Notes: generated from the letters alone by a model not told the origin. 64,000 nt of DNA from a virus (IMGVR_UViG_3300037067_009230:12156-76155), one strand, 5' to 3'. Numbered from the stretch's first letter, positions 10,285-32,653 are shown. A program made the numbers and translations.

Positions 10285-10357
10285 TGCGGGTTACGCAGGA
10301 GGGGTTCCTCGAAGGGCTCATATCCCTTGCACAGTAGTTCGAGTCTACTACCCGCAA
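10285..10357 (+). tRNA. tRNA-Met(CAT), initiator-like
   Basis: Acceptor TGCGGGT/ACCCGCA; anticodon stem AAGGG/CCCTT with three G-C pairs and loop CTCATAT; T-arm AGTAG-TTCGAGT-CTACT. D-arm is atypical and CCA is not encoded. Confidence 0.85.
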
Positions 10358-10383
10358 CAAGGGATTGTTGATCCACAGGTGAG

Positions 10384-12562: not shown

Positions 12563-12883
12563 ATGTGTGACGGAAATTTAGCAATGGCAGAAACTTTGAA
12601 TAACGCAGAACCAACCCAATTGGGTATAGGTGCAGTTAGCAGTAGTGCTTTTGTTAATAGAGAAGGTATTGTTTTGAAAGTTGGTATGAAAGTAAAAGGA
12701 TTTATTACATATCAACGCTCATATATGAGAACTGGTGACAAAGACATCACTGGTACTATTGTAAGCAAACATGGGAGATTGTATGTAAATAGCGATTCTG
12801 AACCCGAAAAGAACTATCCACTTTCAAAATTTGCTCACAATTGGCTAACTCAAAATAAAATTGCATGGTTGGATGTTCTTTAG
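12563..12883 (+). CDS. Cassette-borne hypothetical protein (cassette C1)
   Basis: N-terminus QLGIGAVSS is encoded by an attC-like right arm. Body is bounded by GTTAG(12635) and CTAAC(12896). Confidence 0.65.
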   Translation: MCDGNLAMAETLNNAEPTQLGIGAVSSSAFVNREGIVLKVGMKVKGFITYQRSYMRTGDKDITGTIVSKHGRLYVNSDSEPEKNYPLSKFAHNWLTQNKIAWLDVL

Positions 12884-12959
12884 CATTGCACCTAACGGAC
12901 AGCGGTAAGAGTAGGCCGCTTTGTAGACTGCTCAAATTTAGTAACAGCCTTTCTGCGGT

Positions 12960-13274
12960 ATGCTTTATGACCGCTTGTTAGGCACAGTACATTTTATTAT
13001 GATTTCAATTAAAAAAGCAGATTGGACAAAGAAAAGAGAATACTCAAAAGAAATGAAACTTGATGGATTTATTTCTTCCGTAGAATTAAGCGGAATGCAC
13101 TTTACTCAGATTGATTCACTCGGAATTGATTCTCGAAAATTAGATAATCCAAAAATACTTAAACAGAAATTTGAAGCAGATAATAATTTGCGTTGTATCT
13201 GTTTGGATTACGGAGGCAGAACTAAAAAATATTGGTACAAAGTTGGCGACTTGCGGAAGTTGTATTGTGCCTAA
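12960..13274 (+). CDS. Cassette-borne hypothetical protein (cassette C2; alternative start 12999)
   Basis: Stop TAA lies inside the terminal CTAAC box. Confidence 0.65.
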   Translation: MLYDRLLGTVHFIMISIKKADWTKKREYSKEMKLDGFISSVELSGMHFTQIDSLGIDSRKLDNPKILKQKFEADNNLRCICLDYGGRTKKYWYKVGDLRKLYCA

Positions 13275-13328
13275 CTAGCTAGTAAACATACTAAAGGTAT
13301 GTTTACTATACAAAAATCAGTAAATAAA
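13273..13328 (+). repeat. 56-bp attI-like array-terminal element, copy 1
   Basis: AACTAGCTAGTAAACATAC-TAAAG-GTATGTTTACTATACAAAAATCAGTAAATAAA; three copies in the window. Confidence 0.9.
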
Positions 13329-17164: not shown

Positions 17165-17246
17165 CAGTTAACGTTAAATGTTTGTGCAGTTGGGGATTAT
17201 AAACCACTGCACTGTCAAAATAGTACTAACTTAATAAATACAGATT

Positions 17247-17549
17247 ATGAGCGAATTAGCACAAGACCCCCAATTGCATAAACATATTGTTGTGCGTAGT
17301 TATTTATCATTCTTTGCAGAAAAACACAAGTGCCACATTGATAAAATAATGGTTGGAATGGTTGGGGGTGATTTGCATGTATGGAAATACGACGAAGGCG
17401 CAGCAAATATTTTTACACAACTCGAAATCATATCCAATTTTGAGACTGATGATAGAAAATGGATTTGTCAATTATGTGGCGAATTAGTTAACGGTAGAAA
17501 TGTAACATTTGAAGAATATCACGAAGGTTGTGGTGGCCTCTGTGTATAA
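17247..17549 (+). CDS. Cassette-borne protein with C-terminal Zn-ribbon-like motif
   Basis: ATG lies in the hairpin loop; CQLCG...HEGCGGLC. Confidence 0.65.
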   Translation: MSELAQDPQLHKHIVVRSYLSFFAEKHKCHIDKIMVGMVGGDLHVWKYDEGAANIFTQLEIISNFETDDRKWICQLCGELVNGRNVTFEEYHEGCGGLCV

Positions 17550-17557
17550 TTACGCAC

Positions 17558-17613
17558 AACTAGCTAGTAAACCTACTAAAAGTATGTTTACTATACAAAA
17601 ATCAGTAAATAAA
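17558..17613 (+). repeat. 56-bp attI-like array-terminal element, copy 2
   Basis: 54/56 identical to copy 1. Confidence 0.9.
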
Positions 17614-25417: not shown

Positions 25418-25884
25418 AATACCTTATTTATGAAATAATGTTTCCAAAGTCTTTCCTGCTCTGTCTTATCACCACTGGTCTTAATCCAGTATAGTAAAGA
25501 TAGGAAAAAATTATTCTTCCAACCCCCATTTTTATCAAACCATTTTTTAAACTCCTTTGTCTCATTCTCTTCCTTTACTTTTTTCTTACTATTCTTTTCC
25601 ATTTCAAGTATTTTACTAACTTGGTCAGAAAAAGCAGCACCCCGAAGAGTAAATGGTCTATTTTTTGATTTGTTAAACTCTTTACATTCGGCTATCCACA
25701 TATTACGATACTTAGTAAATAGTGCATCGGCTTCTTCACCTTCAGTATCCTTTAAATCGGACCGGTAAGTAAAAAATAAATTTATAAGTGTGGTAAGAGT
25801 CTCCTGTTTCTTTGCTCTTAATCTTCTAACAAATCTGGGATCTTTCTCCTTAGTTTCGTTTTGAACAACCTTTTTCTTTTCCAT
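25414..25884 (-). CDS. Hypothetical protein
   Basis: 156-aa ORF coupled to both neighbours. Confidence 0.65.
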   Translation of the reverse strand: MEKKKVVQNETKEKDPRFVRRLRAKKQETLTTLINLFFTYRSDLKDTEGEEADALFTKYRNMWIAECKEFNKSKNRPFTLRGAAFSDQVSKILEMEKNSKKKVKEENETKEFKKWFDKNGGWKNNFFLSLLYWIKTSGDKTEQERLWKHYFINKVL

Positions 25885-27830
25885 TAGTTTAAAATTAAAT
25901 TGTTATTTTCTTTAGTAAAATTTATTGTATTAGCATATAAGTTATCCAGAGTACTGGAATGAGATATTACATAAACACTCTTTCCTTCATCGGCTTTCAT
26001 CCTAATTAAATCAAATACAGCATTTTCACCATCCTCATCCAAACCATCAAAAACTTCATCCATAATTAATAGGTTGATATCTGTATTAATTGAAATGAGA
26101 TCGTACATCGCAAAAATTAAAACGATATCTAATCTTTGCTTCTCACCCCCTGAAAATTCTTTATAGTCTTTATTTAATTTATCCCCTAAAGAGCATATTG
26201 TCGTAAAAGGCTTGCTAGATTTCGTTAAATCAATTGCAAATTCAATTGATATTCCAAGCCGTTCTCCATATTTGCGTGTATTCTCGTTAAGCTGGGCCAG
26301 CATAGCGTTAAAAATAAATGCTTTTATTCCACTGGCACCAAATCCCTTCTCAGACCACCATTTTATTATTTTAATCTCTTCTTGTAAATCCGTGATATTA
26401 CTATTAAGTGATTCAGATTTAATCTTCATTAAAGTAATTGCTTTCCCCTGTGATGCTATATTAAAATCTGGAGCCTTTTCATTCTGTAAAGATTTTAACC
26501 TAATCTTTTCATTTTCTAATAGGACTATCTCAAATAGGGTATTTTCAATGTTATTAAGTTCTTGATATCTGGCAGCAACTACATTGTATCTATCATTTGT
26601 GGTAGTAATATCGTTTTTAACTCTTTTAATCCCTTCTGTGACATCATCTAAAGCCTGTGTTAATTGAAGTAATTTATTATTTAACTCAAGTATCTGAGTA
26701 TTTAAATCTTCAATCTCAGCCTCAGCCTCTTTGTTAGCAGTCGAATAAATCTTTTCAATATTTGCATGATTAGTTTGATTAATAGCCTGATGACATACAG
26801 GGCATAATCCTTTTACAATAGATTCTTTAACAATACCTTTATTTTCCTCAATCTCTTTCTTAATTTGATTTATTCTAGCAGTAAACTGGTTAATTCTATA
26901 ATTATTATTATCAATCTCAGACTGAATACGTTTCTGGTCATTATCAATCTCTACCAAATCCAATCGATACTTATTCTTGGTACTAGTGAGTTCATTATAT
27001 TCCTGTTCAATCTTATCATGTTCTTCTTTGTCATAATCAAGAGGAGGAACAACTACTTTTAACTCATTATTATAATTAGTAATAAGAGTTTCAAAACCCT
27101 TAATATTTGATTCACAGTCTGAAATCTTATTAGCCTGATTCTGACCCCACTCCTCACAAAGACGTTTATCCCGAACAAGGGTAGCCTCTGCCATAGTAAT
27201 CTGAGAATTAAGGGTATCAGCCTCAGATATGATCTTACTAAGATTTTGATTCTTCTCAGTAAGATCCAGTTCGGCTTTATGCTTACAGATATTAACCCAC
27301 TCTACATCAAATAATTGCTCAAACAAGGCTCTCTTATCTTTATTATCCTGAGTGATTAATCGGGCCATCCTTTGACCAAACATTACAGAGTTCATAAATG
27401 TCTTAGGATCAGTGCCAAGGAGTTTATTAATTCTTTCCTGAGTTTCATCTTTATTAATTCCTGGGAAAAGTTGTTCATTATTTTTCCAGAGCATGAGTGA
27501 ATCATTACCCTTTAAACCGTTAGTATCTCCCTTATAATCCAAATGACGAGCAATGGAGTAATCTTCTCCATCTACTTCAAAATACGTTATTACTCTGGTT
27601 CCTTTCCAATTTGAGGGTCTTATCTCTTCCCATGAAGCGACTTTATCCTGATTAGTTTCTTTTAAGTTTGTACCAAATAAACACCATACCACAGATTCAA
27701 ATAATGTTGTTTTTTTAGTACCATTAACACCTTTAATAAGATTTAATCCGGGACGGTCAAGATCAAATATTAATTGATTGACGATACCACGGAAACCATC
27801 TATTATTGCTTGTTGAAATTTAATTTTCAT
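25884..27830 (-). CDS. sbcC: SbcC/Rad50 (gp46-like) ATPase
   Basis: Walker A variant GVNGTKKT, coiled coil, Zn-hook CPVC, FSGGE signature, MDEVFDGLD, ISH. Confidence 0.9.
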   Translation of the reverse strand: MKIKFQQAIIDGFRGIVNQLIFDLDRPGLNLIKGVNGTKKTTLFESVVWCLFGTNLKETNQDKVASWEEIRPSNWKGTRVITYFEVDGEDYSIARHLDYKGDTNGLKGNDSLMLWKNNEQLFPGINKDETQERINKLLGTDPKTFMNSVMFGQRMARLITQDNKDKRALFEQLFDVEWVNICKHKAELDLTEKNQNLSKIISEADTLNSQITMAEATLVRDKRLCEEWGQNQANKISDCESNIKGFETLITNYNNELKVVVPPLDYDKEEHDKIEQEYNELTSTKNKYRLDLVEIDNDQKRIQSEIDNNNYRINQFTARINQIKKEIEENKGIVKESIVKGLCPVCHQAINQTNHANIEKIYSTANKEAEAEIEDLNTQILELNNKLLQLTQALDDVTEGIKRVKNDITTTNDRYNVVAARYQELNNIENTLFEIVLLENEKIRLKSLQNEKAPDFNIASQGKAITLMKIKSESLNSNITDLQEEIKIIKWWSEKGFGASGIKAFIFNAMLAQLNENTRKYGERLGISIEFAIDLTKSSKPFTTICSLGDKLNKDYKEFSGGEKQRLDIVLIFAMYDLISINTDINLLIMDEVFDGLDEDGENAVFDLIRMKADEGKSVYVISHSSTLDNLYANTINFTKENNNLILN

Positions 27831-27856: not shown

Positions 27857-27912
27857 TTTATTTACTGATTTTTGTATAGTAAACATACTAAAGGTGTGTT
27901 TACTAGCTAGTT
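27857..27912 (-). repeat. 56-bp attI-like array-terminal element, copy 3
   Basis: Matches copy 1 except for the hairpin loop, which is reverse-complemented (CTTTA vs TAAAG), and one substitution. Confidence 0.9.
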
Positions 27913-28267
27913 AGCAGCCATTTTTAAGGAAGTCTGGTAGCTTCTCATAACATTCACTTAAAAATAATGGTCTGTCTTTGTAATGCTTTCGTAACTTCAA
28001 GAGCATATTTCTTTGATATTCCACCTGTTTAACAAAGTCATTGTATTCGGTTTCTGTAAGTTCATTTTGTCCTTCTTTTCTAAAGAATTTATTGTAGAAA
28101 TAAACAAGTGAATCTTTGCACTTTTGAAGTTCCTCTTGGTCAGCAGATAATAAACGGCTGCTAACCGCATCTATACCCAATTGGGTAGTTTCTGAGGTAT
28201 TCAAATTTTTGTGTTCCATTGTTACTTTATTTTTTAAGTTGATAATTTTGTGTTTCAAATTGCCCAA
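27911..28267 (-). CDS. Cassette D8 protein (probable start 28219 in hairpin loop)
   Basis: QLGIDAVSS N-terminus comes from the hairpin arm; stop inside CTAAC. Confidence 0.65.
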   Translation of the reverse strand: MGNLKHKIINLKNKVTMEHKNLNTSETTQLGIDAVSSRLLSADQEELQKCKDSLVYFYNKFFRKEGQNELTETEYNDFVKQVEYQRNMLLKLRKHYKDRPLFLSECYEKLPDFLKNGC

Positions 28268-28319
28268 CTGGGCATAGCTGCAACACGTTAGGTTTAATAA
28301 TTACCCCTACGCACCGGGA

Positions 28320-28490
28320 CTAATTACTATCAGGATCGTATGTTTTATATTTCCATCCTAACCATGCCATTCGTCCAAATTTCTTATCCAGTTCTAAATC
28401 AATGTGGGCCATTGACCAATTCTTACTGATTTCAAATTCCTCTGATGACCCATTTTCTAATTCTACAATTATTGTTCTCATTTGTCGCAT
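28320..28490 (-). CDS. Cassette D7 protein (56 aa, not in ORF track)
   Basis: Translated by hand: MRQMRTIIVELENGSSEEF...WLGWKYKTYDPDSN. Confidence 0.55.
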   Translation of the reverse strand: MRQMRTIIVELENGSSEEFEISKNWSMAHIDLELDKKFGRMAWLGWKYKTYDPDSN

Positions 28491-28577
28491 AATTAATTTC
28501 GTTATCTGATCTCTTCTGTAATTACTGAAATCTAACTACGTGTAAAATTCATTGAAACGAAATTTTACACCTGTCCG

Positions 28578-28874
28578 TTAGCAAACATGCCGATAGAGGT
28601 ACCCACTTTTATGAGCGCGTTCATCAACTTGTTGCATTAGTTCTTTTGCTGATTCACTTCCGTAAGGTCTGCGATATTTGACTTCTTCTGTGCCGTCTGG
28701 CCACTTTTGCACAATTTCAGTAGTTACAAAGGCACGATTTGCTAACAATGTATTTACGCCATTGGCGGTTACATTCTCGCTGGATAAGTTATCGGTTTTC
28801 ATATATTCGTTTTTACGTTTAAAATTTGTACTAATTAATCGCCAACAGGCGCAAATACTCACCGTTAGCGGCAA
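28578..28874 (-). CDS. Cassette D6 protein (probable start 28802)
   Basis: Start in hairpin loop; stop inside CTAAC. Confidence 0.6.
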   Translation of the reverse strand: MPLTVSICACWRLISTNFKRKNEYMKTDNLSSENVTANGVNTLLANRAFVTTEIVQKWPDGTEEVKYRRPYGSESAKELMQQVDERAHKSGYLYRHVC

Positions 28875-29167
28875 TTAAGCGATTTTATGTACTCATTAGC
28901 AACATAACTTGCTTTGCATTCATCAAACTCATTAAGTGTTGATTTGTACCATATCAAAAAATCGCTTAACAGTTCGCTTTGCCCGCTAACATCAGGTATA
29001 GTTAATTGCCTTTGCTCCGATTCATACCCGTTCGCTAAGTGCTCAGAATATTCGGTCATTAACCTAATAACAGTATCATAACTAAATGCTGTTCCTTCTT
29101 CTTGTCCGTCTGGGTAACGAACTTTCTGTGTGTACCCTTTTTCAAATAAAAATTGATGTGCTTTCAT
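28865..29167 (-). CDS. Cassette D5 protein; N-terminal ~59 aa encoded within a giant attC-like hairpin
   Basis: QLTIPDVS marks the GTT junction; stop inside CTAAC. Confidence 0.65.
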   Translation of the reverse strand: MKAHQFLFEKGYTQKVRYPDGQEEGTAFSYDTVIRLMTEYSEHLANGYESEQRQLTIPDVSGQSELLSDFLIWYKSTLNEFDECKASYVANEYIKSLNCR

Positions 29168-29275
29168 AATTCGCTCACTATTTAAGTTATTAAAGTTTAT
29201 TACTCTTATTAAGGTTAGTAGTAATTTGACAGAGGCAACTAACCATACCTGTGTTCGTTAGGCACAATAAAAAGA

Positions 29276-29512
29276 TTACGGTGTATCTCTGAAATAAGCA
29301 GTTGTGATATGATATTTTGCTTGTTCATCTTTTGGTAGTTTATGAATTTCGTCCATAATCCTATTATACATCTCCACCTTTTTAATCTTATACTGTTTAA
29401 GTTCTTTATACCATTTTATGGCGAATGGTAGTTTAGTTATCCACCCAATTAAAATGCCTATTGCTAAAATAATACATGTACTCATATTATTAAGATTTAC
29501 TGTGCCTAACAC
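29276..29512 (-). CDS. Cassette D4 membrane-anchored protein (probable start 29485)
   Basis: Hydrophobic N-terminus CIILAIGILIGW. Confidence 0.6.
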   Translation of the reverse strand: MLGTVNLNNMSTCIILAIGILIGWITKLPFAIKWYKELKQYKIKKVEMYNRIMDEIHKLPKDEQAKYHITTAYFRDTP

Positions 29513-29638
29513 ATGCTATAAAAAATAGCGGTTTTAGTAGTTTGCACAAGGTTTATACTTCTATTTAATTTCACTGTATTTTGATAAATTTGTTCTTCTA
29601 TTTCCGCTACTTTTCATAGCATCAACGTTAGGGTGCAT

Positions 29639-29977
29639 TTAAAAATCCTTACACCAACTATCCAACTGAAAGGATAGACTGTCATATACTATTGTTTTAT
29701 TTGGTAACTTTCGCCAATTCCAATAACCTCGTGGATATTCTTCTGTTGCAATAAATTTAATTTGCTTTTTGATTAATCCAAACAAAATAGGTTGTTCGCA
29801 AGTCAAAATGATGTTACCCTTTTCGTTTGTTTCTTTTTTAATTGCTTTCATAAAAATTGAATAAAAACGCACCCTAACAATGTATATAGCAAATTGGGGG
29901 TGTCGTTCCAACTTGTATATTTGTGCTGTTAATTTACTTCTGTGTGGCTCGATAGGGTAGCACATTTTAATCCCCAA
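29639..29977 (-). CDS. Cassette D3 protein (alternative start 29851)
   Basis: Body bounded by gttagggtgc / gcaccctaac. Confidence 0.6.
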   Translation of the reverse strand: MGIKMCYPIEPHRSKLTAQIYKLERHPQFAIYIVRVRFYSIFMKAIKKETNEKGNIILTCEQPILFGLIKKQIKFIATEEYPRGYWNWRKLPNKTIVYDSLSFQLDSWCKDF

Positions 29978-30021
29978 CTTGCCATATACTTAACGTTAGT
30001 TGCAAGGCTAAGTCCATGCAT

Positions 30022-30852
30022 TTAATCAACATTTGTGGGTAAATCCGTAAAAGAAAAAAGCCCACGCTCTTTTGCTTTTTCAAAGCAATTAGGGTTAATG
30101 TCACAACCAATAAAACTTCGGTTTAAGTCTTTACAAACTTCTGCTGTTGTAAAACTACCTGAATAAAAGTCCGCAACTAAATCACCTTCATTGCTACTTG
30201 CTTTAATAATTCGTTCAATTAATGATTTTGGTTTTTGGGTATCATACCCAAGTCTTTCAGAGTTAGTCGGCCCTAAATTATTCAATTCCCAAACATCATC
30301 AATAGGTGTTGAATCTTGTATTTTATAAACAACATCCCCATTTTCATCCCTTTTCATTACCTTTTTGCCATCTTTCACATCTACCTTATTTTTCTTTCTT
30401 GGTGTTTCTAACGGTAATCTTAATTCATTAAATATTATTTTGTCGGTTTTACCATAAAATATAAGTATATCGTGGTTTTTAGCAAACGCCTTTTGTTTTA
30501 TACTCCATTTATTGTAACTCCAAATAACCTCATTCACAAAATTATCATACCCAAATATATCATCCATAATACACCGCATCCAATGGTTTATTTTTGTGTC
30601 CATTTGTAGGTAAATGCTTCCTGTTGGTTTTAATATCCTGTGCATTTCTTTTATTCGTGGTATGTAGTGGCTTTCAATTTCGCTTCGTATTGGCTTTATA
30701 TCTTGATAGTCTGCAAATCTTCTACCAGTACCATAGAGTATATCACAATAAATTAAATCAATCGTGTTGTCTTTAATTTCTGCCATCAATTCTAAATTGT
30801 CGCAAATTCTAAGGTCTAAAAACCCCTCCCCATTTTTTTCTTTTACTCTCAT
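30022..30852 (-). CDS. N4/N6 DNA methyltransferase (beta class), cassette D2
   Basis: Motif IV variant YCDILYGTG, TQKPKSLIERII, motif I DFYSGSFTT, FIGCDIN. Confidence 0.85.
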   Translation of the reverse strand: MRVKEKNGEGFLDLRICDNLELMAEIKDNTIDLIYCDILYGTGRRFADYQDIKPIRSEIESHYIPRIKEMHRILKPTGSIYLQMDTKINHWMRCIMDDIFGYDNFVNEVIWSYNKWSIKQKAFAKNHDILIFYGKTDKIIFNELRLPLETPRKKNKVDVKDGKKVMKRDENGDVVYKIQDSTPIDDVWELNNLGPTNSERLGYDTQKPKSLIERIIKASSNEGDLVADFYSGSFTTAEVCKDLNRSFIGCDINPNCFEKAKERGLFSFTDLPTNVD

Positions 30853-31022
30853 TCGTTCATTTAATTAAGTTTCTACTAATTTTACCGCCCAGCATATAAC
30901 AATGTATATAATTTATAGGCAGTTATGTTAATAATTCAATCTTTATTTCTCGTTTAAAGTATGTAGGTAACTCAAAATTCGTAGCTCGAAATGCCTACAA
31001 ATCATATACAAACCGTTAGCAC

Positions 31023-31262
31023 CTATTTTAAAATGAATGACTGACAATCATCACATATAAAACTATGAGCATAAACAGATTTTAATTCGCACCATGAGCA
31101 ATGACCATATGTGGCACCCGTATAGTATTTACAGTTCCCGTATTTATAAAAAACAGGTGCTAACACAGGCTCAACTGCAATAGCTGGAGAAGTATGTTGC
31201 GTAGGTCTTACTCTTTTTGCCATGTTCGTTGTATTTTGATAATTAAGTATTTCAAATTCCAC
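31023..31262 (-). CDS. Cassette D1 small Cys-rich protein (probable start 31223)
   Basis: CKYY...HCSWC...ICDDC; start in hairpin loop. Confidence 0.6.
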   Translation of the reverse strand: MEFEILNYQNTTNMAKRVRPTQHTSPAIAVEPVLAPVFYKYGNCKYYTGATYGHCSWCELKSVYAHSFICDDCQSFILK

Positions 31263-31283
31263 TACATGCGGTTAGCATCAACG

Positions 31284-31676
31284 TTAGACACCTATTTCAA
31301 AAGAATAATCACTCCCATTGATAGTTTCTTTTTCATAATAATTACATAGTTCACCAAGGGAATAGAAAACAGGTATATTATGTTTCTTTGCAAGTGCTAC
31401 CTCATCATCTGCGCCAACGCTCTCACCAGATAAACGCAGTACACAATCACAAACTAGTAGCCATATATTATCTATAGTAATCCAATCATTGTCGGGTCTT
31501 GGCTGTACTACATTTTGAAAATGATTTAAAAGTGGTACAAAAGGCACAAAATTTAAATTCATGAGAATATGTGCAGTATCTATCTGCCTATTTACATTTG
31601 AGATTTTATTACCCAGTGTATAAGGACTTGCGATATAAACCTTAATTGAATCTTTAGTCATATTTGGGAAAGTCAT
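31284..31676 (-). CDS. DUF1937/DUF4406-like (nucleoside 2-deoxyribosyltransferase-like) protein
   Basis: KVYIASPY...WLLVCDCVLRLSGESVGADDEV...IPVF. Confidence 0.75.
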   Translation of the reverse strand: MTFPNMTKDSIKVYIASPYTLGNKISNVNRQIDTAHILMNLNFVPFVPLLNHFQNVVQPRPDNDWITIDNIWLLVCDCVLRLSGESVGADDEVALAKKHNIPVFYSLGELCNYYEKETINGSDYSFEIGV

Positions 31677-32653
31677 TTTATTAAAATTAATCCATAGTTT
31701 AAAACCTTCTCATCTAATTTAGTGACTTCTGCATAGTTTTTTATAATAGTCTCCGGTGCAAGGTCTGTTCTGAAATTATTTAACATTTCCTGCTGCTTAG
31801 TGGTTTTTGTATTAATGACAGGAGACCATACCACATATTGCTGTTGTTCCCACTCAGTTAACTCAGATCCCTCTTCTTTTCTAATGAACTGGGGAAATTT
31901 ATCTGTGATGTCCTTAAATGATATAGTATTAGGATCATCTAAGTCTAATATCCAGAATCCCTTCCGTTTTCCAAGATCTCCGAGATCCCTATGCATAGGA
32001 CTTCCGACATTAATAAACTTATCAGTTATCTCTCCACCATCATGGACATGACCATTAAACACCATATCAAAATTATCAAATAATGAATCATCTGGTTGAA
32101 TATGATCTTTCTCTGGAAAGCCAGAAGCTACCATCTGGTGCATGAGAAGATAACTTTTACCTGTAGTATATGTTTGTTTCACTTTATCCTGTAAACCACC
32201 AAGAACCTTTTTAAAATGCTCCGGATATTCAAAATATGAAATACCAAATATATGATTATTGTTATCGGTAGATAGCCGACTCATATCATTTAATAGAATG
32301 AAATTATCAAACAAAATAGCCAAATGTTGAAGGGCACTGGTAGCCGGTTGGTCTATGAGATTTTTACTTGCTTGATCATGATTACCAGAAATAGCTATAA
32401 TCTTGATTAATGGATATTTCTTAAAGTTATTCTTGAAGCAGGCAATAATAGCATCCTCAGCTTCAGTGGACATAATCTGCATCAAGTTATAAAGATCCCC
32501 CGGCAATAAGATATATTTTATTTCATTTACACTTGCAAAATTAAACAGGTAATCAAGATATGCAATTCCATTATTTAACCTGCGGTTATCCTGATTGAAT
32601 TTCTGATATTTATGCACGTGGATATCTGACGTAACAATAGCTAATTCACTCAT
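31673..32653 (-). CDS. sbcD: SbcD/Mre11 (gp47-like) nuclease
   Basis: SDIH, PGDLYN, GNHD, NGHVH motifs. Confidence 0.9.
   Translation of the reverse strand: MSELAIVTSDIHVHKYQKFNQDNRRLNNGIAYLDYLFNFASVNEIKYILLPGDLYNLMQIMSTEAEDAIIACFKNNFKKYPLIKIIAISGNHDQASKNLIDQPATSALQHLAILFDNFILLNDMSRLSTDNNNHIFGISYFEYPEHFKKVLGGLQDKVKQTYTTGKSYLLMHQMVASGFPEKDHIQPDDSLFDNFDMVFNGHVHDGGEITDKFINVGSPMHRDLGDLGKRKGFWILDLDDPNTISFKDITDKFPQFIRKEEGSELTEWEQQQYVVWSPVINTKTTKQQEMLNNFRTDLAPETIIKNYAEVTKLDEKVLNYGLILIK

Follow-up and report, generated by a model that had tools for sequence, protein, structure and literature searches.

The textbook device for gene capture in bacteria is the integron, commonly believed to rely on one enzyme family, IntI, and to be nearly absent from Bacteroidota. 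Here we describe eight gene cassettes, separated by imperfect hairpins, that lie between the sbcD- and sbcC-like genes of a virus. They belong to a stretch of 64,000 nucleotides (IMGVR_UViG_3300037067_009230:12156-76155), in the following called the window, which comprises bases 12156-76155 of a 76,155-bp virus record of the IMG/VR database rated 92% complete; positions are counted from the first letter of this stretch. The region is very probably an integron-like array of eight mobile cassettes which accumulated at one site between the two genes. We favour this reading because the hairpins covary, short complementary sequences (tags) mark both ends of the same cassette, breakpoints fall exactly at TAAC, and the junction is empty or differently filled in relatives. 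A preliminary description of this DNA had also spoken of an integron-like array; covariation, tags and breakpoints support this term, but it does not extend to a canonical integron, since the associated enzyme is Xer-like and without the IntI insertion.

As in integrons, the cassettes hold one gene each and alternate with imperfect hairpins that act as sites and have inverse AAC/GTT cores. The beginning of each cassette complements the inverse core that closes the same cassette, and stop codons are placed in this core. In both systems, arrays lengthen at one end, next to a tyrosine recombinase, and orphan arrays without an enzyme are common. However, the recombinase associated with the arrays described here is Xer-like and has no IntI insertion, with about 270 amino acids (aa) in phages and 355-395 aa in Bacteroidota, where an N-terminal extension of about 100 aa is present. 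The sites, uniform and long at ~126 nt, contain invariant G.T wobbles, and the tag covers 6 nt beyond an invariant TAAC/GTTA. Furthermore, in phages the gene is inverted with respect to the site: it lies on the other strand, in many cases with its start inside the loop of the hairpin, and its transcription leads towards the recombinase end. The window phage has three arrays and no enzyme.

Among isolate phages, integron tools were applied to 10,705 genomes by Qi et al. 2023 (PMC9892861, Front Microbiol), who reported 17 integrase-less attC clusters, mostly of two to four short sites, and read them as parts of bacterial integrons carried by phages. Six sites were tested with IntI1, and P12002L_attC1 was the one without recombinants. 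This site, from Polaribacter phage P12002L, is a match of our hairpin model (L121:30002-30062). Our locus shares with those clusters the phage-borne attC-like sites without an integrase and the methyltransferase cargo, whereas the long-hairpin family, the Xer-like recombinase, the Bacteroidota arrays and the inverted polarity are not reported there. The preliminary description had known of no account of such a system. This holds for the non-IntI system, but not for integrase-less attC clusters in virulent phages, which are published (PMC9892861). The searchable literature yielded no account of the long-hairpin family, of the Xer-like enzyme belonging to it, of the arrays in Bacteroidota or of the inverted polarity, which is not a proof of novelty. 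A second known system are the PeSLs (promoter-early stem-loops) of T4-type phages (Arbiol 2010, PMC2839356; Comeau 2014, PMC4122927). These, too, are stem-loops beside small accessory genes in the hyperplastic regions of virulent phages, and modular gain and loss of the genes has been linked to them. PeSLs are short, sequence-conserved promoter-terminator motifs thought to act via homologous recombination (PMC2839356, PMC4122927). In contrast, the sites in the window conserve structure and not sequence, carry complementary tags and have a dedicated recombinase in relatives.

The sbcD-sbcC junction in the window and in relatives

On the gene-sense (minus) strand, which carries all genes of the window from 21 kb onward, the order is a nucleoside-deoxyribosyltransferase-like gene, H8-D8, H7-D7, H6-D6, H5-D5, H4-D4, H3-D3, H2-D2, H1-D1, a terminal element of 53 nt and sbcC, where H stands for a hairpin and D for a body. 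The region was re-read on this strand, and the alternation of eight bodies with eight hairpins claimed before was confirmed together with the hairpin sizes: 128 bp for H8 (31160-31287), 124 bp for H7 (30896-31019), 126 bp each for H6 (29874-29999) and H5 (29506-29631), 276 bp for H4 (28986-29261), 127 bp for H3 (28742-28868), 50 bp for H2 (28532-28581) and 131 bp for H1 (28161-28291). Each hairpin shows (C)TAAC at its opening and GTTA(G/T) at its closing end. The self-complementary body ends were recovered as well, with 10/10 positions in D1, D5, D6 and D8, 5/6 positions of the tag in D3 and D4, 4/6 in D2 and none in D7. Stop codons in the TAA of CTAAC, also noted earlier, are used by four genes, namely the deoxyribosyltransferase-like gene and those of D1, D3 and D4.

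A peptide-seeded search for close SbcC relatives gave none in IMG/VR or in metagenome contigs; the relatives compared here, with 53-64% identity in SbcC, came from the protein database only. Their syntenic order is helicase, polymerase, NinB-like, SbcD, SbcC, PD-(D/E)XK, amidase, RNase H and PIF1. In the first of them (L255) there is nothing between sbcD and sbcC, and the genes overlap by four bases; the second (L256) has 48 nt at this place and the third (L257) one endonuclease VII gene. None of these three contains any hairpin site. The closest relative (L258) has its own small two-cassette array between sbcD and sbcC. It opens with the tag (GCAGCC) and hairpin type of cassette 1 in the window, here as a 3′ half-hairpin, and then has a single long hairpin (74.8 bits) and two cassettes whose cargo is unrelated. 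Its end, TAAC|TACTTATATG.., resembles the stretch beside the recombinases of other phages. With the junction being empty or differently filled in syntenic relatives, the postulated insertion into the sbcD-sbcC operon is supported. Identical arrays, or insertions and deletions not breaking at the cores, were not seen among the relatives compared.

The surroundings of sbcD are a hotspot in this lineage even without hairpins. A T5orf172/GIY-YIG-type gene is located before sbcD in one relative (L255:1782-2201), and the endonuclease VII gene between sbcD and sbcC mentioned above is found at L257:7571-8014; the compared stretch of the window is 31284-32653.

Hairpin family, tags and the mobile unit

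A gapped pattern derived from the window sites gave six matches in the window and none in 100 shuffles. The seven long sites of the window, six in the main array and one in a second, smaller array (array 2, 17169-17293), can be aligned to a stem of 26 bp in which 12 of the 26 pairs show compensatory changes. The signature of the family is TAAC-G...stem...T-GTTA with a length of ~126 nt. Scanning of IMG/VR, by the gapped pattern and then by a covariance model, delivered 164 matches at E <= 0.01 in 80 loci, with arrays of up to 12 sites. In 150 external phage sites, 91.7% of the cells are paired compared to 65% in column shuffles, and 975 cells are changed on both sides, a value which none of 500 shuffles reaches and to which slid registers come nowhere near. 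Three positions are near-invariantly G.T (G.U), always on the same strand, and one of these is situated just inside the core. A covariance model built solely from sites of other phages (R2) recovers all window sites, the seven long ones with 70-115 bits and H4, H2 and the short site of array 1 with 22-28 bits. An Rfam search gave no family that matches the hairpins. The hairpins are one covarying structured family, and the model-based scan that the preliminary description had proposed recovered it in phages as well as in Bacteroidota.

The logic of the cassettes is evident from their tags. In 58% of 103 phage bodies, the 6 nt that follow GTTA are complementary, over a run of at least four, to the 6 nt that precede the next TAAC; in 42 bodies the run is exactly six. 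Usually the tag is followed by GT and preceded by AT, corresponding to one additional wobble pair. When the same test is made across a single hairpin, the value is 2.5%, as against 3% for random pairs, in line with the earlier statement that end repeats match within a cassette and not across a hairpin. Bacterial bodies behave similarly, with a tag run of at least five in 51 of 66. By analogy with integron cassettes, such tag matching is the putative signature of a circular intermediate.

Concerning the mobile unit, 52 pairs of hairpins were found that are at least 85% identical and located in different loci. The right tag or flank is common to five to six of these pairs, the left one to none. 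In a further smaller array of the window (array 1), the cassette at 12892-13275 is about 87% identical to a cassette in an unrelated contig (L034). The homology starts at TAAC and stops exactly after the next TAAC; past this breakpoint, the window runs into its terminal element and the contig into another site. Several observations, including the coding strand of phage bodies and the common ending of the window arrays, agree that the mobile unit would be a hairpin together with the body following on the wobble strand, where the exchange point would be TAA|C. As another candidate, a unit composed of a body and the hairpin following in gene direction was considered and dropped in view of the number of shared flanks, the breakpoints against L034 and the comparison with bacteria.

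Recombinases and coding polarity in phages and Bacteroidota

The preliminary description had reported no recombinase in the window, and a tyrosine recombinase or a remnant of one is also absent from the whole 76-kb record. The co-occurring recombinase it had predicted exists: related phages and chromosomes of Bacteroidota encode it at the end of their arrays. Of the array-bearing IMG/VR records, 9 of 30 encode a tyrosine recombinase with a length of about 270 aa. In six phage loci, its ATG is located 46-52 nt after the cassette end AT-N6'-TAAC, on the same strand as the cassettes. The array-adjacent enzymes possess a SAM-like core-binding and a catalytic domain (PF13495 + PF00589), as simple two-domain tyrosine recombinases do, and the catalytic R, K, HxxR, H and Y are invariant in nine recombinase sequences. 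The best model is XerA, with 170-206 bits for the phage array-end enzymes and up to 236 bits over all array-adjacent enzymes, and among solved structures XerA 5hxy comes first (E 4e-36) and IntI4 2a3v second, the latter aligning in two stretches. Also the TIGR02249 model is matched in two pieces by the array-end enzymes (six from phages, three from Bacteroidota), skipping approximately the profile positions 180-240, and all nine score below its cut-off of 265 bits. We take the skipped positions to be the insertion that defines IntI. An IntI with the integron-specific extra domain was found neither in the 76-kb record nor among the array-adjacent enzymes of the six phages and three Bacteroidota. 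In model score and domain layout the array enzymes resemble XerA and XerC/D; unlike Xer and the dif-integrating elements, they are not located at dif and are not housekeeping copies, and their gene abuts a cassette array.

An array-type recombinase is present in none of 11 near-complete array-bearing IMG/VR records, hence orphan arrays like those of the window are common. The recombinase-bearing phage records are mostly large, with 100-256 kb (G004, G005, G019, G021, G022), and the 11 near-complete array records mostly have 30-100 kb.

A strict pattern scan with one genome per species revealed at least 120 loci; among the matches listed these are mostly Bacteroidota, with few Ignavibacteria, Marinimicrobia and Desulfobacterota. 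The covariance model finds arrays in those bacterial loci. Whole-genome scans detected at least 116 sites in Lacinutrix neustonica (G031), most of them in one stretch of ~166 kb (arrays at C1:838833-1005128 and 3797182-3822983), and 64 sites in Olleya sp. (G032; array at C1:521199-560769). Of five Bacteroidota genomes, four carry their closest homologue to the phage recombinase near the same polarity end of the main array, 1-8 kb from the last detected site. In the fifth genome, Lacinutrix, the array-end copy is decayed and contains three stop codons. The homologues have 35-38% identity to the phage enzyme and score well above the housekeeping Xer genes, which these genomes carry separately besides the array enzyme.

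Bacterial bodies are encoded on the strand opposite to the model's sense in 58 of 66 cases, which is the classical integron layout of gene, then site, with transcription away from the recombinase end. In phages, 99 of 103 bodies are coding on the sense strand of the model, and the cassette genes run towards the recombinase end, unlike in integrons, where attI and the Pc promoter are located next to intI and transcription leads away from attI. The orientation of the wobble (G.T) strand towards the recombinase end stays constant in phages and bacteria while the coding polarity flips. This argues that the strand asymmetry serves DNA recombination and not the structure of a transcript or RNA. The opposite coding polarity also implies that phages have a cassette pool of their own, which is not borrowed from the arrays of their hosts.

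These data bear on the question whether the region could be the remnant of a canonical integron, i.e. ordinary attC sites that are served by a host IntI and exchange cassettes with bacterial integrons. The hallmarks of attC are there, with AAC/GTT inverse cores, an imperfect hairpin, stops in the inverse core and complementarity within the cassette. In addition, integrase-less clusters are known from virulent phages, and the PH101 sites, likewise of the form TAACG...TTGTTAT, were recombined by IntI1 (PMC9892861). However, the one site that IntI1 did not recombine in that study, P12002L_attC1, is a member of our family (PMC9892861), and all six phage and three bacterial array-end recombinases skip the IntI-specific insertion and stay under the TIGR02249 cut-off. 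About half of the family sites have GTTAT, which violates GTTRRRY, the attC core that goes with the inverse core RYYYAAC. IntegronFinder surveys were almost blank in Bacteroidetes (PMC9024848) although the arrays fill chromosomes of this group, so that the arrays appear to escape standard tools. With coding on the strand opposite to that of bacterial cassettes, the phage cassettes are not simply borrowed. We therefore regard a canonical integron remnant as improbable.

It is less probable still that the hairpins are regulatory stem-loops of transcripts, or promoter-terminator modules of the PeSL type, and that shuffling is a by-product of homologous recombination with no site-specific enzyme. 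The hairpins do stand in a hyperplastic region with small genes on either side, shuffling through PeSLs is on record (PMC2839356, PMC4122927), the ORF (open reading frame) starts in the upstream hairpin loop in 38 of the 99 phage cases, and in phages the G.U wobbles are on the transcribed strand. In bacteria, however, the hairpins are antisense to the genes, and the wobble strand is not the transcript. Moreover, homologous exchange leaves the complementary 6-nt tags and the exact TAAC breakpoints unexplained, the spacing of 46-52 nt to a dedicated recombinase gene is fixed, and the sequence of the hairpins is far more diverse than their structure. Selfish miniature repeats of the REP/MITE type, spread into intergenic spaces between resident phage genes, are hardly credible, since ~126-bp palindromes with conserved termini do occur in many copies in phages and bacteria, but these copies covary and are not sequence copies of one another, occur only in co-oriented arrays with tagged bodies, move as one unit of hairpin and body, and are missing together with the bodies at the locus of relatives.

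Terminal element, proposed mechanism and cargo

In gene direction, each of the three window arrays closes with N6'-(T/C)AAC, and the same 53-nt element, in the following called the anchor, comes next. In the main array it is located at 27857-27909 on the minus strand, between the last TAAC, which it adjoins, and the start of sbcC 26 nt further downstream. Array 1 (12606-13328, plus strand; R2 27.3 bits) opens with a 3′ half-hairpin (12606-12639) and one body; then come a short hairpin (12892-12981) and a cassette body (12977-13275) with the tags GGCACA/TGTGCC, and an anchor copy (13276-13328) closes the array. Array 2 (17169-17613, plus strand; R2 105.8 bits) has the long hairpin mentioned above (17169-17293, cores TTAAC/GTTGT), a body and an anchor copy (17561-17613). 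The body ends with TACGCA-CAAC and its tags match 6/6; the ORF (17247-17549) starts in the loop.

The array start far from the anchor or recombinase may be a 3′ half-hairpin alone, right behind the upstream gene, as seen at 12606-12639 (plus) in the window and at L258:2340-2385. In these cases the ORF of the first cassette begins at the position of the would-be loop. A shorter hairpin subtype of about 90 nt occurs in the window (12892-12981, plus) and in two other contigs (L034, L006). Its 3′ half (..GCCTTTCTGCGGTATGCTTTATGACCGCTTGTTAG) is identical between the window phage and unrelated contigs, and the 5′ half is diverged.

The anchor is present in exactly three copies in the window, each at an array end, and in no copy in shuffles. 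It starts with TAGCTAGTAAAC and contains a 10-bp hairpin, which is followed by a 28-mer conserved exactly across the three copies. The anchor hairpins (13288-13312 and 17573-17597, plus; 27873-27897, minus) keep their 3′ arm exactly. One copy has the 5-nt loop CTTTA, and the two others have TAAAG or TAAAA; CTTTA is the reverse complement of TAAAG, as if the hairpin had flipped. There is no copy of the anchor in IMG/VR, and the single 20-mer match in metagenomes, inside a gene of 373 aa, is a chance match. Since it is found nowhere else in the window or in IMG/VR, the anchor is not a general promoter of the window phage. Its position corresponds to that of the attI-like stretch of the recombinase-bearing relatives and makes it a candidate attI-like insertion site.

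Taken as an integron-like array, the locus could work as follows. Each cassette would consist of a structured recombination site, the hairpin of ~126 nt, and a cargo that has a 6-nt tag of its own on both sides (GTTA-N6 ... N6'-TAAC). After excision as a circle, the tags would lengthen the hairpin stem; once the circle is opened at the core, they would flank the body, as in the array. By analogy with integrons, a tyrosine recombinase would cut one folded strand at TAA|C, and the circle would be inserted beside a fixed site, at that end of the array which is downstream in gene direction. The dedicated Xer-like recombinase that related phages and Bacteroidota have at this end would perform the task. 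The window phage may have lost this enzyme or never had it, and the 53-nt element at all three arrays would be the insertion site. With no enzyme in cis, the cassettes may be moved in trans by the enzyme of a co-infecting phage or a host, or the arrays may now be frozen.

Several points weigh against this interpretation. The end tags of D7 do not match, those of D2 are weak, and H2 is short. The polarity of the mobile unit has just five to six events of shared flanks in its support. No recombinase is present in the record, which is 92% complete. No relative of the anchor is detectable elsewhere, and its sequence is unlike the TAT-ATAT-rich stretch beside the recombinases of other phages. Finally, a demonstration of recombination by the Xer-like enzyme was not found in the literature. 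On balance, the evidence supports classing the region with an integron-like system, as a member devoid of a recombinase. The system departs from integrons in the enzyme, in the architecture of the sites and, as far as phages are concerned, in coding polarity.

The cargo of the array is described here in gene direction, all on the minus strand. Cassette 8 (31015-31287) consists of H8 and the body D8 (31015-31164), with 94.6 bits by model R1 and 70.3 bits by R2. Its ORF (31023-31223, 66 aa with CxxC...CxxC) starts within the hairpin loop, and its tags GCACCT/AGGTGC match 6/6. In cassette 7 (29995-31019; R2 82 bits), the 3′ core of H7 is GTTAT and the cargo is an orphan N6/N4 DNA methyltransferase of 276 aa (30022-30852; PF01555, E 1e-45; phrog_67), the only cargo with an annotation. 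Its gene shares 75-83% DNA identity with cassettes of L122/L032 and L080 and with the methylase cassette that neighbours P12002L_attC1 in Polaribacter phage P12002L, and its product is plausibly anti-restriction. Cassette 6 (29627-29999; R2 106.6 bits) has an ORF at 29639-29851, alternatively starting at 29965 within the loop, and tags GGGTGC/GCACCC (6/6). The hairpin with its right tag is 95% identical to one in another phage locus (L035), and left flank and body are unlike. Cassette 5 (29257-29631; R2 114.9 bits) encodes a protein of 69 aa (29276-29485) with a hydrophobic N-terminus and has tags GGCACA/TGTGCC (6/6).

Cassette 4 (28864-29261) comprises H4 and the body D4 (28864-28990) and was assigned by its fold and end signatures, with 27.8 bits by R2 in a partial alignment. 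The 276-bp H4 is a true member of the family, as both ends have the family motifs (..GGTATGGTTAGTTGCC / GGCAATTAACTATACC..), separated by a loop of about 213 nt. The ORF of 100 aa (28865-29167) starts inside this enlarged loop and stops in TAAC. Similarly, the ORF of cassette 3 (28577-28868; R2 94.5 bits), with 74 aa (28578-28802), starts in the loop and stops in TAAC. Cassette 2 (28287-28581), with the short H2, was recognized by its fold and by R2 at 22.6 bits (E 0.05) and has an ORF of 56 aa (28320-28490). Cassette 1, the last in gene direction (27910-28291; R2 93 bits), contains an ORF of 102 aa (27911-28219) with its start in the loop and its stop in TAAC, and its tags GCAGCC/GGCTGC match 6/6. 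The hairpin is 92% and 88% identical to those of two other phage loci (L085 and L048). Searches of Pfam and PHROGs with the eight cassette ORFs gave no credible function for seven of them, the matches of D5 and D1 being weak and under curated cut-offs. Conserved N-terminal peptides (TQLGI.AVSS etc.) were considered as a protein family and rejected, since the frames differ between sites and H7 is closed in the frame of H6.

The neighbourhood is a phage replication and recombination module with helicase, DNA polymerase I, NinB/Orf-like, SbcD, SbcC and a Dda/PIF1-type helicase, and tail genes lie beyond. The insertion is flanked upstream by the sbcD-like nuclease gene (31673-32653, minus; phrog_100 SbcD-like, E 1e-27) and downstream by the sbcC-like ATPase gene (25884-27830, minus; PF13476, PF02463, PF13558; phrog_77, E 5e-83). 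The gap between them has 3.85 kb and holds, in addition to the array, the nucleoside 2-deoxyribosyltransferase-like gene of 130 aa (31284-31676, minus; PF24963, E 2.9e-6; phrog_355, E 5.5e-18). The start of this gene overlaps the sbcD stop, its own stop is in the TAAC that opens H8, and its 3′ end, AT-GGTGTC-TAAC, looks like a cassette end. It was not found in the sbcD-sbcC region of the syntenic relatives. A megablast of 12 kb against isolated phages gave no match, and the DNA polymerase of the window is at most 30% identical to that of any isolate. The early region contains a tRNA-Met (CAT) gene (10285-10358, plus). Two small early genes are separated by a gap of 80 nt, which contains a type-P3 twister ribozyme (RF03154; 18184-18254, plus; 51.9 bits compared to a gathering score of 39.9, E 2.5e-8); the distance from the array-2 anchor upstream of it is 570 nt.

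Beyond the array itself, we lean, at little better than even confidence, towards the window as an orphan of an undescribed second kind of integron. This kind would include arrays of more than 100 cassettes in Bacteroidota and smaller ones in phages, with structure-specific hairpins of ~126 nt, an Xer-like enzyme that evolved without the IntI insertion and a phage pool with inverted polarity and starts in the loop; the window phage would have three private insertion sites loaded in trans with accessory genes such as anti-restriction methylases. The specific additions of the window are the clean insertion into a conserved operon that is empty in relatives, the private terminal element at all three arrays and an array without an enzyme in cis. 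If the Xer-like enzyme moves the cassettes, gene capture at folded DNA sites would have evolved or diversified outside the IntI family. A large reservoir of mobile genes would then have been missed by standard integron finders, and virulent phages would own a dedicated route for trading small accessory and anti-defence genes.

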